Shown piece by piece: positions 1 to 20,502 of a stretch of 64,000 nucleotides of DNA. Where the stretch lies: contig CAVTHO010000006.1 of NCBI GenBank assembly GCA_963734545.1, positions 32,001 through 96,000 on the forward strand, in the 5' to 3' direction. Below the pieces are notes generated by a model. It worked only from the letters and a program-made list of their open reading frames with translations. It was not told the origin of the DNA and searched no databases. A program made the translations under genes and the position numbers. The stretch's first letter is position 1. Each line of letters begins with the position of its first letter. This DNA comes from an uncultured Spirochaetota bacterium. GTDB taxonomy: Bacteria > Spirochaetota > Spirochaetia > SZUA-6 > Fen-1364.

Positions 1-778
1 AGTGATAGGGGGTAGCGAAATAGCATTGCAAAGGAAAGTGTTGCTCGAGAACCTTGTAGTCATGGAACTCAGTTCCGTTGTCGAACGTGATTGTCTTGAA
101 CTTGGCTCTGTGCGCTGAGATTGCCTCTATGGCGGCTTGATTCACGGAAGCCGCCGTGCGAGAGCTCAGCTTCCGGATGATAGCGAATCCTGATTTTCGT
201 TCCACAAGGGTTAGGATGCAATTGTGAAGGTCCGTTCCTATTACAGTGTCACCCTCCCAGTGGCCCAGCTGCATCCTGGTTTCAACCTCGGGCGGACGCT
301 CCGAGATGTGGCGCTTGCCGGCCAGGATTCCTCGCGAATCCCTTGATCTGTAGCGTTTTCTGTGGGTCTTGGTAACGATTCGCAGGTGCTTGAAAAGCGT
401 GCCTCCATGCTTTTCGTCATCGTAGATGAACTGGTAGATGGTTTCGTGGCTAACGGTGAACGATCCGTTGCGACGTAAGGACCCAGAAATCTGTTCGGGG
501 CTGAAGTCCTGCTCGAGCAAAGCGATCACCTCTTGCCAGTAGCGGGGAGCCATGTGAAAGCCACGGCGGGACCGTTTTCGCCTGGTGGTAGCATAACTGT
601 GGGCAAGATCCGCACGGTACCAACCATCAACGATCTTCTTGTTACGAGCAATCTCGCGACTGATTGTGCTGGGGGAGCGCTGAAGAGCTCTGGCAATGGC
701 GGAAATGGTAGAGTGCCTATTGCGGAACTCGGTAATGGTGTAGCGTTCATCTTGAGAGAGTTGATGATATCTACGCAA
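1..778 (-). CDS. IS30-family transposase (runs off the left edge)
   Basis: Manual minus-strand translation from TTG at 778 (RBS AAGGGGA): LRRYHQLSQDERY..RSPSTISREIARN..SPEQISG..SHETIYQ..GHWEGDTVIG, all typical IS30 motifs. Confidence 0.93.
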   Translation of the reverse strand, partial: MRRYHQLSQDERYTITEFRNRHSTISAIARALQRSPSTISREIARNKKIVDGWYRADLAHSYATTRRKRSRRGFHMAPRYWQEVIALLEQDFSPEQISGSLRRNGSFTVSHETIYQFIYDDEKHGGTLFKHLRIVTKTHRKRYRSRDSRGILAGKRHISERPPEVETRMQLGHWEGDTVIGTDLHNCILTLVERKSGFAIIRKLSSRTAASVNQAAIEAISAHRAKFKTITFDNGTEFHDYKVLEQHFPLQCYFATPYH

Positions 779-855
779 GTATGGATCCCCTTTCTTGGCG
801 GAAAAGTGACACGTACCCAAGTAGCATCTCGACTCTCTCATTTGGTTTCCAGACC

Positions 856-880
856 CTTGCACTTACTTCTTGAATCCGCG
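856..880 (-). mobile_element. IS30 left terminal inverted repeat
   Basis: CGCGGATTCAAGAAGTAAGTGCAAG upstream of the transposase; near-identical copy at 14678-14702. Confidence 0.8.
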
Positions 881-882
881 AG

Positions 883-997
883 CCATAACAAATCGTTGCA
901 GTTGTCCCCTATGAGGCCGCCTGTAGCGGTGAATGCAGCTTGGCATTCCATAGAGTGTTGGGTTGATGCGGCGGGGCAACTGAACTCTATGTTAGAT
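883..997 (+). repeat. attC-type recombination site 1
   Basis: R'' CCATAAC; L'' GTTGCAGTTGTCCCC pairs with L' GGGGCAACTGAAC leaving two extra bases (G898, T905); R' GTTAGAT. Confidence 0.9.
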
Positions 998-1055
998 GCT
1001 TTGAAAGCGGTGCGCGCCGCAGAAACTAGACAATCCAGACCTATGGAGGTACAAT

Positions 1056-1996: not shown

Positions 1997-3344
1997 TGAA
2001 CCGTTCGGGGACATAGGTAACAAAGTCTTCTGGAGACATAGGTAACACTTATTCTGGGGACATGGGTAACACTCTTCTCGCAAGAGGAGGTGGTGGCCAT
2101 GCCGTGGAAAGGGGTTACCGTGAGCGAACAGAGAGCAAACTTCCTCCGAGACTACGCGCTGAAGTACTACAGCGTGACTGAGTTGGGGGAGATGTACAGT
2201 ATTTCCCGAAAGACCGCCTACAAGTGGATCGATCGCCACGAGGAATTAGGACGCAGCGGTCTGGAGGACCTGTCGCGACGTCCTCATAGTTGTCCTTGGC
2301 AGACACCAGGGTACATTGCCGAGGAACTGGTGAAGGTGCGGGAGAAGCATCCGTACTGGGGACCGAAGAAGCTGCTGGATATCATGGAGCGCAGGCACCG
2401 CAGGTGGCAGCTTCCTTCGGTGGCCACCGCGGCACATATTCTGGCCGAAAAAGGTCTGGTACGTGAGAGGCGCCGGCATCGGCGGGCTCACCCCGGATGT
2501 CCGAAGAGCGTTGCCGAGGGACCGAATGATATCTGGGGATCCGACTACAAGGGTCAGTTCCGAATGGGCAACGGGCAGTACTGCTTCCCCCAGACCGTCA
2601 GCGACCTGCATACGCGCTTCCTTCTGGGGTGCGACGGCCATCCGCAGGTATCCGCGGAGCTGACCAAGGTGCATTTTACAGGGCTTTTTCGCACCTTTGG
2701 GCTTCCCCGACGGATTCGCACCGACAACGGTGTTCCATTCGCGTCCAACGCGCTGGGTCGGTTGTCAGACTTGTCGGTGTGGTACATCAAGCTGGGCATA
2801 TATCCTGAGCTCATCGAGCCAGGTCGGCCGCAACAGAACGGGATCCATGAGCGAATGCATCGAACGCTGAAGCAAGGCACCACTCATCCGCCTGGCAGCA
2901 GTCTGAAAAGCCAACAGGAGAAGTTCGAGACCTTTCGGAAGGAATACAACGAGGACCGCCCTCACGAGGCGCTGCAAATGAAGAGGCCAGCGGAGGTGTA
3001 CCAACCCTCATCGCGGGAACTGCCTGAGCGAATCGAAACCTATGACTACCCCAATCAGTTCCTGGTGAGGCGCGTCAGCCGTTGCGGAACGATTCGAGTC
3101 TTTGGAAATCAAGCGTTTGTCAGTCAGACACTGAACGAGGACTTCGTGGGCCTGGAGGAAGTGGATGACGGCGTCTATGACATCTACTTTTGCTTCTACT
3201 TGATCGGGCGCTATGAATTGCGCACCAATACGATTCATGACATTATTAGCAAGGTGGCGGTGAGCGTCAGTAAGGCAGAGGGGCCATCGAGGGTGTCACC
3301 TATGTCTCCAGAATAAAGTGTTACCCATGTCCCTTGATTGTACA
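1997..3344 (+). mobile_element. IS481-family element inserted between cassette ORF and attC
   Basis: Ends TGAACCGTTCGGGGACATAGGTAACA and (rc) TGTACAATCAAGGGACATGGGTAACA, with repeated GACATRGGTAACA motifs; no clear target duplication. Confidence 0.88.
2099..3316 (+). CDS. IS481-family DDE transposase
   Basis: MPWK start, HTH, W-x-x-DYKG, RTDNGVPF, PQQNGIHERMHRTLK, RPHEAL. Confidence 0.93.
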   Translation: MPWKGVTVSEQRANFLRDYALKYYSVTELGEMYSISRKTAYKWIDRHEELGRSGLEDLSRRPHSCPWQTPGYIAEELVKVREKHPYWGPKKLLDIMERRHRRWQLPSVATAAHILAEKGLVRERRRHRRAHPGCPKSVAEGPNDIWGSDYKGQFRMGNGQYCFPQTVSDLHTRFLLGCDGHPQVSAELTKVHFTGLFRTFGLPRRIRTDNGVPFASNALGRLSDLSVWYIKLGIYPELIEPGRPQQNGIHERMHRTLKQGTTHPPGSSLKSQQEKFETFRKEYNEDRPHEALQMKRPAEVYQPSSRELPERIETYDYPNQFLVRRVSRCGTIRVFGNQAFVSQTLNEDFVGLEEVDDGVYDIYFCFYLIGRYELRTNTIHDIISKVAVSVSKAEGPSRVSPMSPE

Positions 3345-3352
3345 AAGCATCC

Positions 3353-3467
3353 ATCTAACAAATCGTTGCAGTTGTCCCCTATGAGGCCGCCTGTAGCGGT
3401 GAATGCAGCTTGGCATTCCATGCAGTGCTGGGTCGATGCGGCGGGGGAACTGAACTCTATATTATGC
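3353..3467 (+). repeat. attC-type site 2 (R' reads ATTATGC)
   Basis: Near-identical to 883-997; the core G is replaced by A at 3461. Confidence 0.88.
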
Positions 3468-3570
3468 GTTCCTTAGGGTATTGCATTACTGCGAGCAAGT
3501 AGCATATTGTTTGGCTATCGACAGGAACTTTGAACTAGATCCTTGACTCGAAGCGGAAAGGTCAAAGGAA

Positions 3571-4144: not shown

Positions 4145-5470
4145 TGAATGAGCCAAGGACATAGGTTACAGAACATACTAAAGACATAGGTAGCACTTAT
4201 TCTACGGACATGTGTAGCACTTTCCTCTCAGAGGAGGGTGCCAGCCATGCCATGGGAGGGTGTTACCGTGAGCGAGCAGCGTCAGAACTTCATTCGGGAT
4301 TACGCCGACGGCCACTACAGCAGAACGGAGCTGCTGAACGTTTCGGAATCTCGCGCAAAACCGCCCATAAGTGGGTCAAGCGCTCCAAGGCGGAAGGGCT
4401 GAAGGGCCTGGAGGAGCTCAGTCGGCGACCGCGCAGCCGCCCCTGGCAGACGGACAAGCGGATAGTTGAGGATCTGGTGGCGCTGCGCAAAGCATCCCCG
4501 TCGAAGGGTCCGAAGAAGCTCCTGGGGAAACTACGCAAGCTACACCGCTTTGTTGAATTGCCTGCGGAGTCGACAGTAGCGCACATCCTGGATCGTCAGG
4601 GATTGGTGAAAGTCAAGTGGCGGCATCATCGGGCGCATTCTGGCTGTCCCAAGCGTGCGGCCACCGCTCCCAACGACATCTGGGCGGCTGACTACAAAGG
4701 ACAGTTCCGCCTGAAGAATGGGCAGTACTGCTTTCCGTTGACGGTGAGCGACCTGTATTCGCGCTTCCTGCTGGGCTGTGAGGCACACCCAGTGGTCTCG
4801 ATGGAGCAGACAATTGCGTTTTTCCTGCGGCTTTTCCGCGAATATGGGCTGCCCAATCGGATCCGCACGGATAACGGGGTGCCGTTTGCTTCGTGCGCGT
4901 TGGGGCGGTTGTCGGCTCTGCAGGTAGTGTACATCAAGTACGGTGTCTACCCGGAACTGATTGAGCCTGGCAAACCCCAACAGAATGGGATCCATGAGCG
5001 GATGCACAGAGCCCTCAAGCAGGAGGCCACTATTCCGCCTGCAAGTAGCCTGAAGGCTCAGCAGCGGAAGTTTGATGCGTTTCGTCGACGCAATAACGAG
5101 GCATACCCGAGGGACGTTCTGGACCAAAGCACACCGCAGGAGCTCTACTATCGCTCTGCACGAACATATGACGGCAAATCAGAGCTGTGGCACTATCTAG
5201 ATGGAATCGTGGTGAAGTATGTATGCAGGAATGGGGCTATGCGTTGGGGGGCGGGCAAGTGGGTCATGGTATCCACGACGCTGATTGGCAAATACATTGG
5301 ATTGGAACAAATTGAAGAGGGCAAGTGGCTTGTGTACTATCGAAATATCCTGTTGGGCTACCTGGACGAGAAACAGATGCGTATCATGGACGGGCAGGGA
5401 CGGCTGAAGAGAAATGAAAAAGTGTAAAGGATGTGCTTAGAGAACTGTAAAGGATGTGTTCGGTAGTACA
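4145..5470 (+). mobile_element. IS481-family element, frameshifted and probably chimeric
   Basis: Left end carries GACATAGGTWRCA motifs; right end carries different TGTAAAGGATGTG repeats and ends in TACA. Confidence 0.8.
4247..5427 (+). pseudogene. IS481 transposase with N-terminal frameshift
   Basis: ATG 4247 gives MPWEGVTVSEQR, out of frame with the DDE body (shift near 4330); RPH motif lost. Confidence 0.8.
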
Positions 5471-5543
5471 TTTGCCTGACGATAGTGATTCTTTTGCATG
5501 CATTTTGAGTAGCTATTTGGGAACGTGAGGCATGGGGGAGCGT

Positions 5544-6119: not shown

Positions 6120-6126
6120 TCATTAA

Positions 6127-6157
6127 TGCGGCGGGGCAACTGAACTCTATGTTATGA
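6127..6157 (+). repeat. attC 3' half-site
   Basis: ATGCGGCGGGGCAACTGAACTCTATGTTATGA matches the right arm of site 1; the left arm is deleted. Confidence 0.85.
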
Positions 6158-6189
6158 CTACTTAGGGTTATAGTGGCTGGCAATGGAAG

Positions 6190-9382: not shown

Positions 9383-9419
9383 GACTCAGCGGGTGCGCGG
9401 ATTCCCTTGAGGCGGACCT

Positions 9420-9523
9420 TAACGAATCCACCGCCGGAGGCGGCTGATTTGAGCCAGGCCAGAAGAGGCCTGGTTTTTCGCGCTCCTTCTCTTAGAACCG
9501 CTCCTTTTCTTCCTGGTATTGCA
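9420..9523 (-). mobile_element. IS200/IS605 right-end remnant
   Basis: Encodes a QYQEEKERF TnpA tail plus hairpins; ~100-bp homologue at 10345-10450. Confidence 0.65.
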
Positions 9524-9578
9524 CGTTCGGAACCCCAAACTAGTGGACAGCAACCCTTAGATTCACGGGTCTACTACA

Positions 9579-10088
9579 CTATTTCGAACTCAGCTTTGGC
9601 CTAGTTCTATAGAACGTGATCAAGTCTGTCCCAATCGGCTTCGATCCAATCTGACGCAATAACGTGATGATCTGTCCCCGATGATAGGAGGAATGATTGA
9701 CCAAATGTTGCATCTGTTGGAATAGAGGCTCTGATTGTCGGTTCCCTTTGAGATCGCCGTAAGAGAAGGAGTCGTTGAGCTTGCGTTCATCGAGGTTTCC
9801 TAGATAGCTATCCAGGTCGGCTTGGTACTTCTTCCACTGACTTTTCAAAGATTCAAGGTTGGGTATCTCATTCGCAGTGACGGACGCCGATGGGGAGCTG
9901 CCATTCCATCGTTGAAGCCAGATCATGTTTGATCCGTAAATGTGCACGAGAGTTCCATGGATTCCGCCATGGCTGGATGTCAAGTCCGCAAGGTACTTCC
10001 GCTCCGGAACAGAAGAAACCGTTTCTAGAATCCGATCGATTGCCCATGCATCGTACTCGAACAAGGCGAAAATTTCTTGCAGCATCAT
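9579..10088 (-). CDS. DinB/YfiT family protein, cassette
   Basis: TLVHI..WLQRW..HLVNHSSYHRGQI. Confidence 0.9.
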   Translation of the reverse strand: MMLQEIFALFEYDAWAIDRILETVSSVPERKYLADLTSSHGGIHGTLVHIYGSNMIWLQRWNGSSPSASVTANEIPNLESLKSQWKKYQADLDSYLGNLDERKLNDSFSYGDLKGNRQSEPLFQQMQHLVNHSSYHRGQIITLLRQIGSKPIGTDLITFYRTRPKLSSK

Positions 10089-10305
10089 ATCATAAATCTG
10101 CTGACGCAACTCCAAAGGGTCAATAGGCAAATAATGGAGTCCGGCCGGGCTGGGCCATGGACAGAGACTTCTGGGTCTGGGATTGAATGCCAAAAACGCC
10201 GTGAGTTGCATGCCGACCAGATCTTCTGAGGGTGCTGTACATTGCGCGGATCGCCGCACTTCTGATCGAAGGAAGCTTATCCCACCGAAATTGAATCTAG
10301 ACCCT

Positions 10306-10345
10306 GCATAACATAGAGTTCAGTTTCGCCGCCGACAAGAGCTTA
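10306..10345 (-). repeat. attC 3' half-site (minus strand), interrupted by IS200
   Basis: rc CGGCGGCGAAACTGAACTCTATGTTATGC. Confidence 0.8.
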
Positions 10346-10500
10346 AAGAATCCACCGCCAGAGGAGGTGGACTTGAGCCAGGCCTCTAGAAGAGGCCTGG
10401 CTCTTTGCGCTCTTTCTCTTCGAACCGCTCCTTTTCTTCCTGGTATCGCATGTAACGCCATCTCTTTTTCTCGTCCCAGCCCTACGGTCGTTACGCTTTT
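10345..10500 (-). mobile_element. IS200-type TnpA C-terminus and right end
   Basis: SVTTVGL..RYMRYQEEKERFEEKERKEPGLF* followed by hairpins AGCCAGGCCTCT/AGAGGCCTGGCT and TCCACC/GGTGGA. Confidence 0.7.
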
Positions 10501-11377: not shown

Positions 11378-11453
11378 GGCGCTCGCTCCTTTCACTAAAG
11401 GAGCGAGCAGTATAATACATTTCCTGATGCAATGCACCAGCATATAGCGGGCC

Positions 11454-11565
11454 ATCTATCATAGAGTTGAGCTGTGCCGCCGAATAAGACTTGTAGTAGC
11501 GTAGCGGATAAGCCCCTTCAAACCAAACTGCACCCACGGCGACAGTTCCAACGATTTTGCTAGAG
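11454..11565 (-). repeat. attC-type site, variant (R'' CTCTAGC, R' GATAGAT)
   Basis: rc CTCTAGCAAAATCGTTGGAACTGTCGCCG...CGGCGGCACAGCTCAACTCTATGATAGAT. Confidence 0.82.
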
Positions 11566-11583
11566 CGTTCCCACCATGCGTTT

Positions 11584-12450
11584 CACTGAGCTTTTTTCTT
11601 CAGGTACTTGTCGAAAAAGGGCACTACCTGAGGGTGACTCGGGCATTCAGGTGCCCCATCGACGGCACCATGATCGACGTGTGGTTCGCACCAACTTCCT
11701 TCATCTTCTTGTCAAGCAGCTCTGCCTGCGACGGATAACCGTTCTCCCCCATGATGCCAAGCACAGGTGGGCTACCGCGACGAACATACGTGACTGCGCT
11801 CACGATGCGGTACTTCTCTGGCACTGCAGAAGGAGAGCCTCCAAGGAGTCCTTCAAGCACTTCGTGTACTTCTTCTAGCTCGTCATACGCTTTCTCTATG
11901 TCTGCGGCTGCTCCAATAGCGACGACCGCCTGCACGTCGCAGCGATATTCTCCGTTCTTGACGTCCCCGTCCGAGTTGTCCTGTTGCTTTGCAAGTCCAG
12001 CTAAAAGAGCCAACCGGCCTCCCGATGACCGGCCAATTAGGCCTATCTTCTGTGGATCAATGCCATACCGGTCTGCGCAAGCCCGTACCCATCGTGTTGC
12101 GTTCTTCACGTCATAGATCTGCGCAGGAAATTGGAACTTGGTCCTATTTCCATCCTTGATGCCTATTGGGACTGTAGTCTATTGAGATCGCAACGTATCC
12201 GCTTTCGGCAGTGTCCTTGATTGCGCAGGAGAATTGGCGGCGATCAAGCTGTGGTCCCCACAACTTGCCACATATGTTGCCTTGGGAGATCACTGCCGGC
12301 TGTTTCTCATGCTGGTCGGCTAGCCTGGCTACGTCAAGCCTCAGATTTAGCCCGTTTCAGCTGTAATAGACAATGTCCTTCTCGAAGGAGACTTTCTACG
12401 CCCGGAGCGGTACCCAGGGGCCAGCATCAACTATGTGCCTAGATAAGAGT
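11584..12450 (-). pseudogene. Degraded BD-FAE-like esterase, paralogue of 1056-1982
   Basis: LDRRQF..GYVAISIDY..FPAQIYDVKNA..IGRSSGG..PFFDKYLK with internal stops and frameshifts. Confidence 0.8.
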
Positions 12451-12632
12451 ACCATCGACTTCTGCCAAGCCCACGCATTTTCACGCACTCCTCTCTCTTT
12501 GCCGTAGAGACAGCAGCCGCCTAACCTCTTGTCATTCCTATGGACAGGGAGCAAACCCACTCCCGAATAGGCCCAATGGGCCATAGCGGCGCACGATGAG
12601 GTTGCTGTGCTCCCCTGACAATTCCCCAAACG

Positions 12633-12745
12633 CTCTAGCATAGAGTTAAGTTGCCCCGCATCAGCACAGAACTGCATCGAATTCCCAGACTGCACCGATC
12701 GTTCCAGGCGACCTCTTAGGGGACAACTGCAACGATTTGTCGGGC
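12633..12745 (-). repeat. attC-type site directly upstream of the recombinase (R'' GCCCGAC, R' GCTAGAG)
   Basis: rc GACAAATCGTTGCAGTTGTCCCC...GCGGGGCAACTTAACTCTATGCTAGAG; same family as site 1. Confidence 0.85.
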
Positions 12746-12812
12746 TGCTCTTTCCCTTTGTTTCTTTATGTTATCTTGTACCATCACCATTGACACTTAG
12801 GGGGACACAGCC

Positions 12813-13700
12813 ATGGGAACTTTGCGGGACTCAATGCGAACTGCAATGGAAATACGAGGTTATTCCAAAAGGACCGTGGAAATCTACCTGTCCTGTGTAC
12901 GGGTCTTTGCGAATCACTTTAAACGGTCTCCTTTGCTGATCTCCGCGAAGGAGGTAGAGTCCTTTTTCCACTTCCTCCGTCAACAGCATAAGAGCGATTC
13001 GACGATCCATCTCTACTACTTTTCATTAAGGCTCTTCTACCACATTAACAATATCAGCGACCGGCTACCGAGGTTTGCCTTTAGGAGAATACAGAATAAA
13101 GTTCCCATGATCTTGAGTCAAGAGAAAGTGGTGACAATACTAAGTAGCTGTAAAAGCCTCAAATTTAGAACGCTCTTCTCTTTGGCTTATGCTTCCGGAC
13201 TGCGGACCTCGGAACTACGAGACCTAACTGTGCGCGACATCGACTTTGACAGGAAGCAGGTATACGTCAGAAACGGAAAGTGTGGACGCAACCGATACTC
13301 AATCCTCGGGAACAGGATCATGCAACTACTACATACCTATATGAATGTGTACAGGCCGCACTCCTTTCTTTTCTACAATCGGGAGGACGGTACCACCAGA
13401 GTTGGCAAAGATGCAATCAGAAGAGAACTGAAGAAGCTTTTAGTCAAGAACGGAATAGATGCCCATGAGGTGCATCTGCACACGTTGAGACACTGCTTTG
13501 CTACGCACCTAATGGAAAACGGCACCAGCATATTTTACATTATGCACCTGCTTGGTCACGCAAGTATCTACACCACGATGGTGTACCTTCACATGCAGGA
13601 CCTGGAGAAACTGAACATTACGTCGCCAATCGACATACTTGAGCTGCGCCCGAATGAGGACACCGAACCTCAGAAAGAGCTATTCGGGGAAACCGCTTGA
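12813..13700 (+). CDS. Tyrosine recombinase with N-terminal SAM-like domain, lacking the IntI-specific insertion
   Basis: Catalytic set intact: SGLR, RNGK, HTLRH, LLGH, TTMVY; N-terminus RGYSKRTVEIY; only a short segment between the K and HxxR motifs. Confidence 0.92.
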   Translation: MGTLRDSMRTAMEIRGYSKRTVEIYLSCVRVFANHFKRSPLLISAKEVESFFHFLRQQHKSDSTIHLYYFSLRLFYHINNISDRLPRFAFRRIQNKVPMILSQEKVVTILSSCKSLKFRTLFSLAYASGLRTSELRDLTVRDIDFDRKQVYVRNGKCGRNRYSILGNRIMQLLHTYMNVYRPHSFLFYNREDGTTRVGKDAIRRELKKLLVKNGIDAHEVHLHTLRHCFATHLMENGTSIFYIMHLLGHASIYTTMVYLHMQDLEKLNITSPIDILELRPNEDTEPQKELFGETA

Positions 13701-14366: not shown

Positions 14367-14559
14367 TCAATTCCTTCTTGATGCAACTAATGTAACCATA
14401 AACGGTTCACTTGCATACATGAGTCGATCCGCACGTAATTCGGGCAAAGAGTTGCAAGACTCTCTATGCCGTGCATCTATGGAGTATGCAGGCCAGGATC
14501 CCCGTCTCGCCCTCCCGCCATGGAAAACTCACGCTACGTCACGCGGCAAAATTTCAGAT

Positions 14560-14675
14560 TTCTTATGAGAGGTTCAGTTGCCCCGCCATATCAGGCCAGA
14601 ATTGCGTGGAATTGCCGGGCTGCACCTGCCGATCCAAGCGGCCGCATAAGGGACAACTGCAACGATCTGTTATGG
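14560..14675 (-). repeat. attC-type site with degenerate R'
   Basis: rc CCATAACAGATCGTTGCAGTTGTCCC...GGCGGGGCAACTGAACCTCTCATAAG. Confidence 0.82.
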
Positions 14676-14677
14676 CT

Positions 14678-14835
14678 CGCGGATTCAAGAAGTAAGTGCA
14701 ACACTCCTCTGGTCAATAAATGAGAGAGTTGCGATGCTATTACGGTACGCCTCCATTTTCCGCCAAGAAAGGGGATTCATACTTGCGTAGCTACACTCAA
14801 CTCTCTCAAGACGAACGGTACCACATCATCGAGCT
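14678..14835 (+). mobile_element. IS30 left-end remnant (diverged second copy)
   Basis: Same IR and RBS as the first copy; TTG 14783 LRSYTQLSQDERY then truncated. Confidence 0.85.
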
Positions 14836-19912: not shown

Positions 19913-20479
19913 ATGCGAAACAGACTGACAAAGGCATATTCTACTGTCGGATGTTGTGGAATAGATTGTGGACTCTGTCCAAGATATCACACCGAAGGAA
20001 AGTCAAGGTGCCCTGGTTGCGCTGGCAAGGACTTCTTTGAAAAGCACCCCTCGTGTTCTATTGTCACTTGCTGCTTCATAACCAGGAAATTGGAGACATG
20101 TGGCAACTGTGAAAGATTCATCTGTGAGAGAATCAAGAATTGGGACAGTGCTGATTCTTTTGTCACGCACCGCACCTGCATCTCCAATCTTGAAAACATA
20201 AAGGAAAATGGATTGGCCGTAGTCATCAGGCAGAAGGAGCAGCGACTGAAATTGCTGTACGATTTACTTAGAGACTATGATGACGGTCGGTCGAAAAGCT
20301 TCTACTGCCTGTCGGCAGCATTGCTTCCGATTGACGAACTTAAAAAGGCAATTGCAGAGATCGGAGACCCCGAAGAAAAATCAAACGACAGAACGCAGGT
20401 AGCGAAGCGGCTCAAGGAGGCGTTCCTGGCAATCGCCAATAGAATTGATGTCGAACTGTCATATCGGAGGAAGACATAA
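19913..20479 (+). CDS. DUF3795-like Cys-rich protein, cassette
   Basis: CCGIDCGLCP..CPGC..CSIVTCC..CGNC; the stop codon overlaps an attC R''. Confidence 0.8.
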   Translation: MRNRLTKAYSTVGCCGIDCGLCPRYHTEGKSRCPGCAGKDFFEKHPSCSIVTCCFITRKLETCGNCERFICERIKNWDSADSFVTHRTCISNLENIKENGLAVVIRQKEQRLKLLYDLLRDYDDGRSKSFYCLSAALLPIDELKKAIAEIGDPEEKSNDRTQVAKRLKEAFLAIANRIDVELSYRRKT

Positions 20480-20502
20480 CAGATTGTTGCAGTCGTTCCC
20501 CC
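20474..20502 (+). repeat. attC 5' half-site
   Basis: ACATAACAGATTGTTGCAGTCGTTCCCC versus family CCATAACAAATCGTTGCAGTTGTCCCC. Confidence 0.7.

Follow-up and report, generated by a model that had tools for sequence, protein, structure and literature searches.

Sedentary chromosomal integrons, such as that of Vibrio cholerae with its V. cholerae repeats (VCRs), combine one integrase with tens of similar attC sites of ~115 nt, between which lie short promoterless genes. An attC site of the VCR type is laid out as R''-L''-variable region-L'-R', with an unpaired spacer, bulged bases and complementary R arms that are specific to each cassette, and the distal end of the array is degenerate. An integron that is alike in these respects occurs in an uncultured Spirochaetota bacterium (assembly GCA_963734545.1), and the subject of this analysis is one gene cassette within a 64,000-nt stretch of that genome, contig CAVTHO010000006.1, positions 32,001 to 96,000, referred to here as the window (C6:32001-96000 in a genome of 5.14 Mb and 10 contigs, 89 % complete with 4.9 % contamination). 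Unlike its counterparts in the VCR arrays, this cassette has C:G rather than T:A at the second pair of its core, and the block of sites to which it belongs lies inverted with respect to the remaining array.

Of all sequence features of integron recombination sites, the GTT/AAC core triplet alone is treated as fixed, and programs that detect attC depend on it. On the triplet positions, the part of the IntegronFinder paper drawn upon here says no more than that they are 'more conserved than the others' (PMC4889954). As far as the excerpted text of Frumerie et al. 2010 goes (PMC2811028), changing the core of a folded attC requires two complementary mutations. In crosses catalysed by the integrase IntI1, the compensated site attCaadA7-GCT recombined with wild-type attI1 at a rate ~6-fold below that of the wild type, the cross of a wild-type attC with attI1-GCT was unaffected, and GCT by GCT was 30-fold down, while a non-complementary core (GTT-ATC) gave 6e-6 versus 2.2e-3 for the wild type, a reduction of ~370-fold. 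The second position (T2) is described as 'quite tolerant' and is the one that IntI1 tolerates best. Precedence of pairing over identity at position 2 is thus already published knowledge and, since a compensated GCT site is recombined by IntI1, a natural GCT/AGC core is no sign of a special enzyme. The cassette described here resembles the attCaadA7-GCT and attCVCRd-GCT sites of that study in combining a T2-to-C change with the complementary change, such that the folded strand is still paired; however, those sites were engineered and assayed with IntI1, whereas the present one is natural, belongs with another attC family and another IntI, and is known from its sequence alone. The other close comparison is with clusters of attC sites lacking integron-integrases (CALINs) and with the distal ends of arrays, which share with this locus lost triplets, truncated sites, pseudogenes, insertion sequences and rare recombination, as far as the same part of the IntegronFinder paper describes them (PMC4889954); yet erosion of that kind consists of unpaired changes, and here both arms have changed in step. 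No natural compensated core was reported in the titles or abstracts found by a literature search, although full texts may differ. A natural cassette whose two arms changed in step would back the laboratory view that position 2 of the triplet is constrained structurally, not chemically, and would be a caution that genuine sites escape filters which insist on the triplet; as one case from a block in decay, it invites a systematic covariation survey and is not a result in itself.

The cassette lies on the minus strand, between an upstream attC (site B) and its own attC (site C; Table 1). On the plus strand, positions 11559-11569 read GCTAGAGCGTT and positions 12629-12639 read AACGCTCTAGC, which are exact reverse complements (11/11); on the minus strand, correspondingly, 12639-12629 is GCTAGAGCGTT and 11569-11559 is AACGCTCTAGC. 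This is the perfect inverted match of 11 bp, with both arms off GTT/AAC, that an earlier note on this DNA had pointed out, and it is borne out in full. With the crossover marked by an arrow, the upstream site on the minus strand reads ...AACTCTAT G↓CTAGAGCGTT, where G is 12639, or, in a longer reading of the same end, ...CAACTTAACTCTAT G↓CTAGAGCGTTTGG. The downstream arm reads AACGCTCTAGC-AAAATCGTTGG, with AGC at 11561-11559, and the downstream element starts ...GGGAACGCTCTAGC AAAATC GTTGGAACTG... and ends ...CTCAACTCTAT GATAGATGG; the 6-nt AAAATC that follows R'' is the spacer of site C, which in the rest of the family is 5 nt long. The cassette start, CTAGAGCGTT, is complementary to the R'' arm of the same cassette, and in the core G(12639) pairs with C(11559), C(12638) with G(11560) and T(12637) with A(11561). 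Both arms therefore depart from the conserved triplets at one base pair, T2/A2' to C/G, leaving GCT and AGC where GTT and AAC are the rule. Pairing of R' with its own R'' arm extends over 11/11 positions, the family norm being 12-13, and in the attC sites found here by a covariance model built from 30 family sites, the two arms fall at homologous positions, R' and R''. Because the register is set by the attC family, the 11/11 match is not due to chance. The element is a true gene cassette of an integron, its second core pair being a compensated C:G, and the natural counterpart of a mutant (GCT/AGC replacing GTT/AAC) that already recombines in the laboratory. A shifted register, in which an outer CGTT/AACG 7-8 bp away would be the real GTT/AAC, was ruled out: complementarity stops there, and the L-box register puts the core at GCT/AGC. 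The earlier note had thus recognized a true cassette; the limits that it gave, 11559..12639, need correction, as 11559 is the end of the R'' arm and not the cassette end or crossover, the cassette itself running from 12638 to 11460.

When the attC that would form at the junction of the excised circle was folded, its bottom strand gave, at -20.4 kcal/mol (-18.8 kcal/mol for the corresponding junction of cassette 2, the comparator), a long, fully paired R stem, a spacer left unpaired and an L stem with bulges, and the compensated pair is predicted to keep the R stem intact in the excised form. The imperfect inverted repeat R''-L''...L'-R' with unpaired spacer and bulges that characterizes attC was likewise found in the covariance matches of sites B and C and in the fold of site 1. 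Within the array as it now stands, the bottom strands of site B and site C fold at -15.1 and -8.4 kcal/mol, respectively; in the minimum-energy fold neither forms the R stem, and neither does better than shuffled sequences. These composite sites pair badly in the chromosome, with site B consisting of R'' GAC and R' GCT, and site C of R'' AGC and R' GAT. Since the neighbouring half-sites fail to pair with the cassette, it is probably not excisable now and, judging from these arms, is probably immobile at present. The GAT of the next site (11460-11458, minus strand) and the ATT of site 2 (3461-3463, plus strand), both listed in the earlier note, were also confirmed. Within the window, partner arms for the GAC of site B and the GAT of site C returned self matches only; among the matches listed genome-wide there were scattered near-matches with 1-2 mismatches and, on contig C7, two exact copies of the 13-mer of site B, none of them beside an attC arm in the arrays.

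Whether such a stem is ordinary can be judged from the attC family at large. The survey set comprised the source genome together with 20 array stretches from six relatives, and yielded 306 hits, 305 sites and 287 consecutive same-strand pairs; R' was placed by the register of the ten bases outside the triplet, so that the triplet itself was not assumed. With a limit of two mismatches in those ten outer bases, 216 pairs were kept, 66 were worse and five had no anchor, the 66 probably reflecting undetected sites, insertions or decay between the two sites. Among 163 distinct canonical cassettes, positions 5-12 are free in base yet paired in 88-100 % of cases (upper bounds, since the set was itself selected for no more than two outer mismatches), and pairing drops to chance beyond position 13. 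A perfect run of at least 11 bp was present in 126 of the 163, the mode being 12, and cassette ends of the family normally pair over 12-13 bp. By this rule the 11-bp inverted match is a normal cassette-end stem of the family. The R core is usually quoted as 7 bp; the R stem of this family spans 12-13 bp.

As for the triplet, 209 of the 216 surveyed cassettes have GTT/AAC. The seven others are the GCT/AGC cassette itself (which appears as TGC/GCA in the survey because of the 6-nt spacer of site C), one GCT/AAC cassette on contig C3 and one GTT/AGC cassette on contig C9 of the source genome, and four artefacts of register or anchor, namely two entries from the relative G023 that are GTT sites with a one-base stem indel and two mis-anchored entries from contig C6 of the source genome. 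The GCT/AGC cassette is thus the sole compensated non-canonical core among the 216. When metagenomes were scanned for L'-R' arms of the family that carry G[A/C/G]TA, 11 loci emerged (seven GCT, three GGT and one GAT), and in all four of the GCT sites that have a downstream attC the cassette proved to be GCT/AAC with a stem otherwise well paired. An R'' pattern carrying AGC matched six times in 92 genomes of the order, versus once for the reversed control. A partner R' could be placed in two of these, on contig C9 of the source genome and at G034:C13, and was GTT in both; for the remaining four, no attC arm lies within 1.5 kb upstream, and two of these are a single sequence present in two genomes. 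The R' pattern with GCTA gave two matches, this cassette and a site at G006:C4 with no downstream attC in the DNA examined. A contig scan for family R' with GCT gave at least 120 loci; the 120 listed are chance matches, since at E <= 1e-3 the attC profile matched none of them. Among at least 315 family sites (counting those listed, up to 34 per genome), single-arm variants occur at ~1 % each, and both single-arm intermediates, GCT/AAC and GTT/AGC, are found in otherwise intact stems. The product of the two frequencies predicts ~0.04 compensated doubles versus the one seen, a rough and post hoc figure in which that one is the observation that prompted the analysis.

A separate variant was also seen, with TATC instead of TAAC in R'', at four sites of G034:C1, two sites of G023:C1 (~1961-1967 kb) and metagenome locus L170. 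Before all of them stands a shared conserved sequence of >40 nt, which comes in two types and looks like the end of a mobile element inserted at a fixed position inside R''.

The preferred reading, given a probability of about 0.5, is that the core is a compensated variant tolerated by an ordinary integron integrase. In this family the first 12-13 bases of each cassette are complementary to the bases that end in its own R'' triplet, and upon excision of the circle the two arms together make up the R-box stem, which is bound and cut by the integrase. One arm would first have changed by a transition, leaving a G.T wobble on one strand or the other, and the partner arm would then have changed while the cassette was still under selection for hairpin pairing; later the cassette would have been stranded in an inverted, eroding block, where its gene died and the neighbouring half-sites stopped pairing with it. 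Such a history fits the IntI1 experiment, the family-wide selection for stem pairing, the single-arm intermediates in intact stems and the clean stem of the cassette itself; the order of events, like any past mobility, is read back from the cassette's identity, its compensated pair, its fold and the erosion around it. That the cassette was in fact mobile with its GCT/AGC core is more doubtful. Were it so, the cassette would be a natural case in which selection has kept R-stem pairing, not base identity, at core position 2, and the near-universal GTT would be kept for partner compatibility rather than chemistry, as Frumerie et al. proposed from IntI1 assays (PMC2811028).

Several observations weigh against this reading, and most of them would be expected if an ordinary GTT/AAC cassette had been stranded and then acquired two independent, neutral AT-to-GC transitions that happen to fall at paired positions, in the absence of selection for pairing. 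The cargo of the cassette is a pseudogene with two stops and a frameshift. Core-triplet positions in the block have changed at 5/33, site A lacks its R' and site 3 its 5' half, insertion sequences interrupt cassettes, and site C differs from its nearest relatives' sites at ~6-7 of ~45 conserved arm positions. Non-GTT R' triplets occur at 5/36 aligned sites of the source genome (three in this block and two in the C3 cluster) versus 2/183 in the arrays of relatives, and the cassette sits where erosion peaks. Both changes are AT-to-GC transitions, as would be expected of low-GC DNA that drifts within a genome of 62 % GC. The sole compensated core lies in the eroded block and none in well-kept arrays; there is no second one among the other 215 cassettes, the four evaluable metagenomic GCT sites and the two evaluable R''-AGC sites. 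Moreover, R''-AGC singles are at least as common as R'-GCT singles in the unbiased set, which does not single out the bottom-strand wobble route; the idea that the wobble form GCT/AAC is favoured over GTT/AGC is not supported by these counts. No other copy of the cassette that would show movement with the GCT/AGC core was found in 100 relatives, the metagenome or the phylum genomes. In the relatives, only the attC parts of the cassette DNA have matches and its body has no homologue; the 22-mer of its R'' arm had no match in the metagenome scan; a cargo fragment reached 44-46 % identity at best in 401 phylum genomes, with no orthologous cassette; and neither a circle junction nor a second location was found in the relatives, in the metagenome scan or in one public run of partial coverage. 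For the block, a rough estimate with ~10 % change per position, an AT-to-GC bias and two evaluable cassettes puts such a coincidence at 1-2 %, which is small, but very many windows were scanned. The earlier contention that a paired change is unlikely to be simple decay is therefore fair only at that ~1-2 % level. What speaks against coincidence is that the same rate of erosion should have left some two unpaired changes among the other 20 stem positions, whereas pairs 1-11 show none, with an estimated P of ~0.1, and that the single-arm product predicts so few doubles in the surveyed family; the clean-stem factor, however, applies to coincident decay and to a tolerated variant alike unless selection continued. 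Coincident decay is accordingly quite possible, if not the favoured account, and on present evidence it is not separable from a tolerated compensated variant.

Compensation could also arise in one step and without selection if one arm were copied from the other by template switching or hairpin repair. Quasi-palindrome correction is known for imperfect inverted repeats, the arms would be ~100 nt apart in the circle, and the circular form has a long perfect arm stem. In the chromosome, however, the arms are 1.07 kb apart, at least six cassettes keep uncorrected single-arm variants in otherwise perfect stems, and nothing direct speaks for such a route, which makes it improbable. An error of assembly or sequencing in one or both of the changed bases, or chimeric binning, is less probable still. 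The completeness, contamination and contig number of the genome leave room for it, and in one public sequencing run, which holds 8 % of the sampled words, the contigs cover 11400-11543 and 12701-12740, outside the core bases; nonetheless, two complementary errors 1.07 kb apart are very unlikely, and the contig piece covering 11400-11543 is identical to the window.

The earlier note drew from the paired change a recombinase that needs pairing rather than the triplet. In its stronger form this would be the Xer-like enzyme encoded at 12813-13700 (plus strand), or an altered IntI, using GCT cores. The gene for this tyrosine recombinase does begin 67 nt from the R'' end of site B, divergent from the minus-strand cassettes, and non-canonical cores cluster in the block. 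Yet the enzyme falls below every curated cut-off (192.6 versus 220 bits as XerA-like; 150.4 bits, in two stretches, versus 265 as an integron integrase) and lacks ~40 residues of the IntI-specific segment, model positions 182-237 being bridged by ~16 residues; by score and by that segment, the open reading frame is not an integron integrase. Among 60 related genomes with the same attC family, none encodes a relative of it with more than 35 % identity, and the neighbouring odd cores (GAC, GAT and ATT) all differ from one another and are without paired partners. The real integrase of the genome, furthermore, is an ordinary, canonical IntI by its sequence. It is encoded outside the window, at C5:2875-3807, scores 403.9 bits against TIGR02249 (404.4 on the translated core; cut-off 265), and aligns from end to end with the solved VchIntIA (2A3V; E 1.7e-80), in an alignment that takes in the IntI-specific extra segment of integron integrases and the lysine of the GKG hairpin. 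A special recombinase for GCT cores is thus very unlikely. A demand for pairing over the triplet is not special to this locus, as IntI1 behaves likewise in the portion of Frumerie et al. considered here (PMC2811028), the IntI is ordinary and 209/216 cassettes are GTT/AAC; nor did the family survey, the metagenome or the genomes of the order supply another compensated core, an outcome that the earlier note itself had counted against its proposal.

The integron to which the cassette belongs is large. Its repeat family, of ~115 nt, has the layout xxxTAAC-AAATC-GTTGCAGTTGTCCCC...GGGGCAACTGAAC-TCTAT-GTTAxxx and occupies the start of C5 (minus strand), C6:9-38154 (plus strand) and the end of C9, with a further small cluster on C3. 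The covariance model matches 35 attC sites in the genome, among them five full sites and one truncated site (~6126-6163, plus strand) in the window, and the family is present in 36 of 101 genomes (relatives plus source genome). Two attC sites of opposite strand lie directly upstream of intI at the start of C5 and ~27 more on C6:1-38154; C5 and C6 are separate contigs, and the assembly breaks at repeated cassettes. Genes lie before their own attC on the same strand, so 'top' strand is used here in the conventional sense. Array DNA has 47-53 % GC, versus 62-65 % for the contigs. The window probably covers the distal, degenerate end of the array of a large sedentary chromosomal integron, in which the block of sites A-D is inverted relative to ~27 plus-strand sites and rve-type transposase genes lie within plus-strand cassettes. 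Site C is the lowest-scoring of the 35 sites and the most diverged family member in the genome.

Table 1. The GCT/AGC cassette, its arms and cargo, and the attC sites of the window (positions are those of the window)
Feature	Position	Strand	Details
Gene cassette	12638 -> 11460	-	From the first base past the upstream-R' crossover (C 12638) to the G of its own attC R' (11460); register from the attC family model
R' core and extended stem arm, G↓CTAGAGCGTT	12629..12639	-	Triplet GCT (12639-12637), not GTT
R'' (inverse core) and extended stem arm, AACGCTCTAGC	11559..11569	-	Triplet AGC (11561-11559), not AAC
Cargo: BD-FAE / alpha-beta hydrolase pseudogene	11624..12521	-	Interrupted by two in-frame stops, TAG and TGA, and frameshifted at least once near 12144-12178
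Site C, the cassette's own attC	11448..11571	-	57.9 bits, E 2.7e-11; in-array R' GAT (11460-11458) belongs to the next cassette
Site B, upstream attC	12627..12751	-	105.9 bits; R'' GAC (12741-12739), not AAC; R' is G (12639) followed by the cassette's CT
Site A	14555..14681	-	80 bits; R'' AAC; R' region destroyed, without GTT, reads CTCTCATAAG
Site 1	877..1003	+	126.6 bits; canonical AAC...GTT; opposite strand to the cassette; canonical hairpin fold
Site 2	3347..3473	+	112.5 bits; R'' AAC, R' ATT (3461-3463)
Site 3, truncated	6126..6163	+	Only the L'-R' half left (GTT); partial match, 19.6 bits
Site D	10306..10334	-	L'-R' arm (GTT) with no recognisable R''-L'' half; missed by the full model

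The cargo can be followed through its damage. Its 184-aa piece matches Pfam BD-FAE at 1e-28, and the translation, which includes ...LRA*KVSFEKDIVYYS*NGLNL... (asterisks denote stops), aligns in pieces and in different frames to residues 49-112 and 112-291 of an intact paralogue in cassette 2 (1056-1982), with 39-42 % protein identity. At that distance the cassette-2 BD-FAE gene was ruled out as a guide to the ancestral core.

In the L stem of site C, two G-to-A differences from the nearest relatives stand on the top strand (GGAACTG for GGAGCTG and GGCACAG for GGCGCAG), each of which is a T.G wobble on the bottom strand; the spacer also holds one extra A. The product of 12813-13700 combines a Phage_integrase domain with a SAM-like N-terminal domain, its layout next to the sites mimics that of intI and its array, and its best relatives in the 60 related genomes share 33-35 % identity with it. 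Upstream of its conserved core, the genuine integrase (G000:C5, where G000 is the source genome; L001 937-2436) has a frame that stays open for a further ~180 codons, across a stretch rich in proline.

Additional observations bear on the history of the array. In the source genome, the first attC on C6 (C6:9-124) and the last on C9 (C9:351845-351960) are near-identical copies of a single site with identical flanks at two contig ends, as expected where an assembly breaks at repeated cassettes; at its other end, each of the C6 and C9 arrays passes into chromosomal DNA, and two arrays or two strain variants may be present in the genome. Within the window, an inverted duplicate, diverged to 81-87 % alike, pairs 728-945 (plus) with 14613-14833 (minus), each copy consisting of the start of an IS30-like transposase gene and the 5' half of an attC. 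The transposase (HTH_38 and rve) is encoded by an open reading frame at 2-862 on the minus strand, and its second copy is broken into small frames. The duplicate brackets a 13.7-kb stretch with both plus- and minus-strand sites, which suggests a history of inversion. From 14700 to 36000 the window has 47-55 % GC and many short unrelated genes, continuing to ~36 kb, while model-detectable attC sites end at 14681 save for an R''-L'' remnant at ~20474-20499 (plus); this region may be an old cassette array with decayed attC sites.

Two related insertion sequences lie in plus-strand cassettes, at 2008-3333 and 4157-5480, with rve/rve_3 transposases of 408 and 405 aa, and the first is bounded by terminal inverted repeats of 41 nt (2008-2048 and 3293-3333). 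Finally, a direct repeat of ~112 nt (85-89 % alike), at 9415-9526 and 10339-10453, flanks a DinB-family gene (9579-10259, minus strand). Each copy holds a perfect GC-rich hairpin (AGCCAGGCCTCT..AGAGGCCTGGCT), and the upstream copy abuts the 3' arm of site D.

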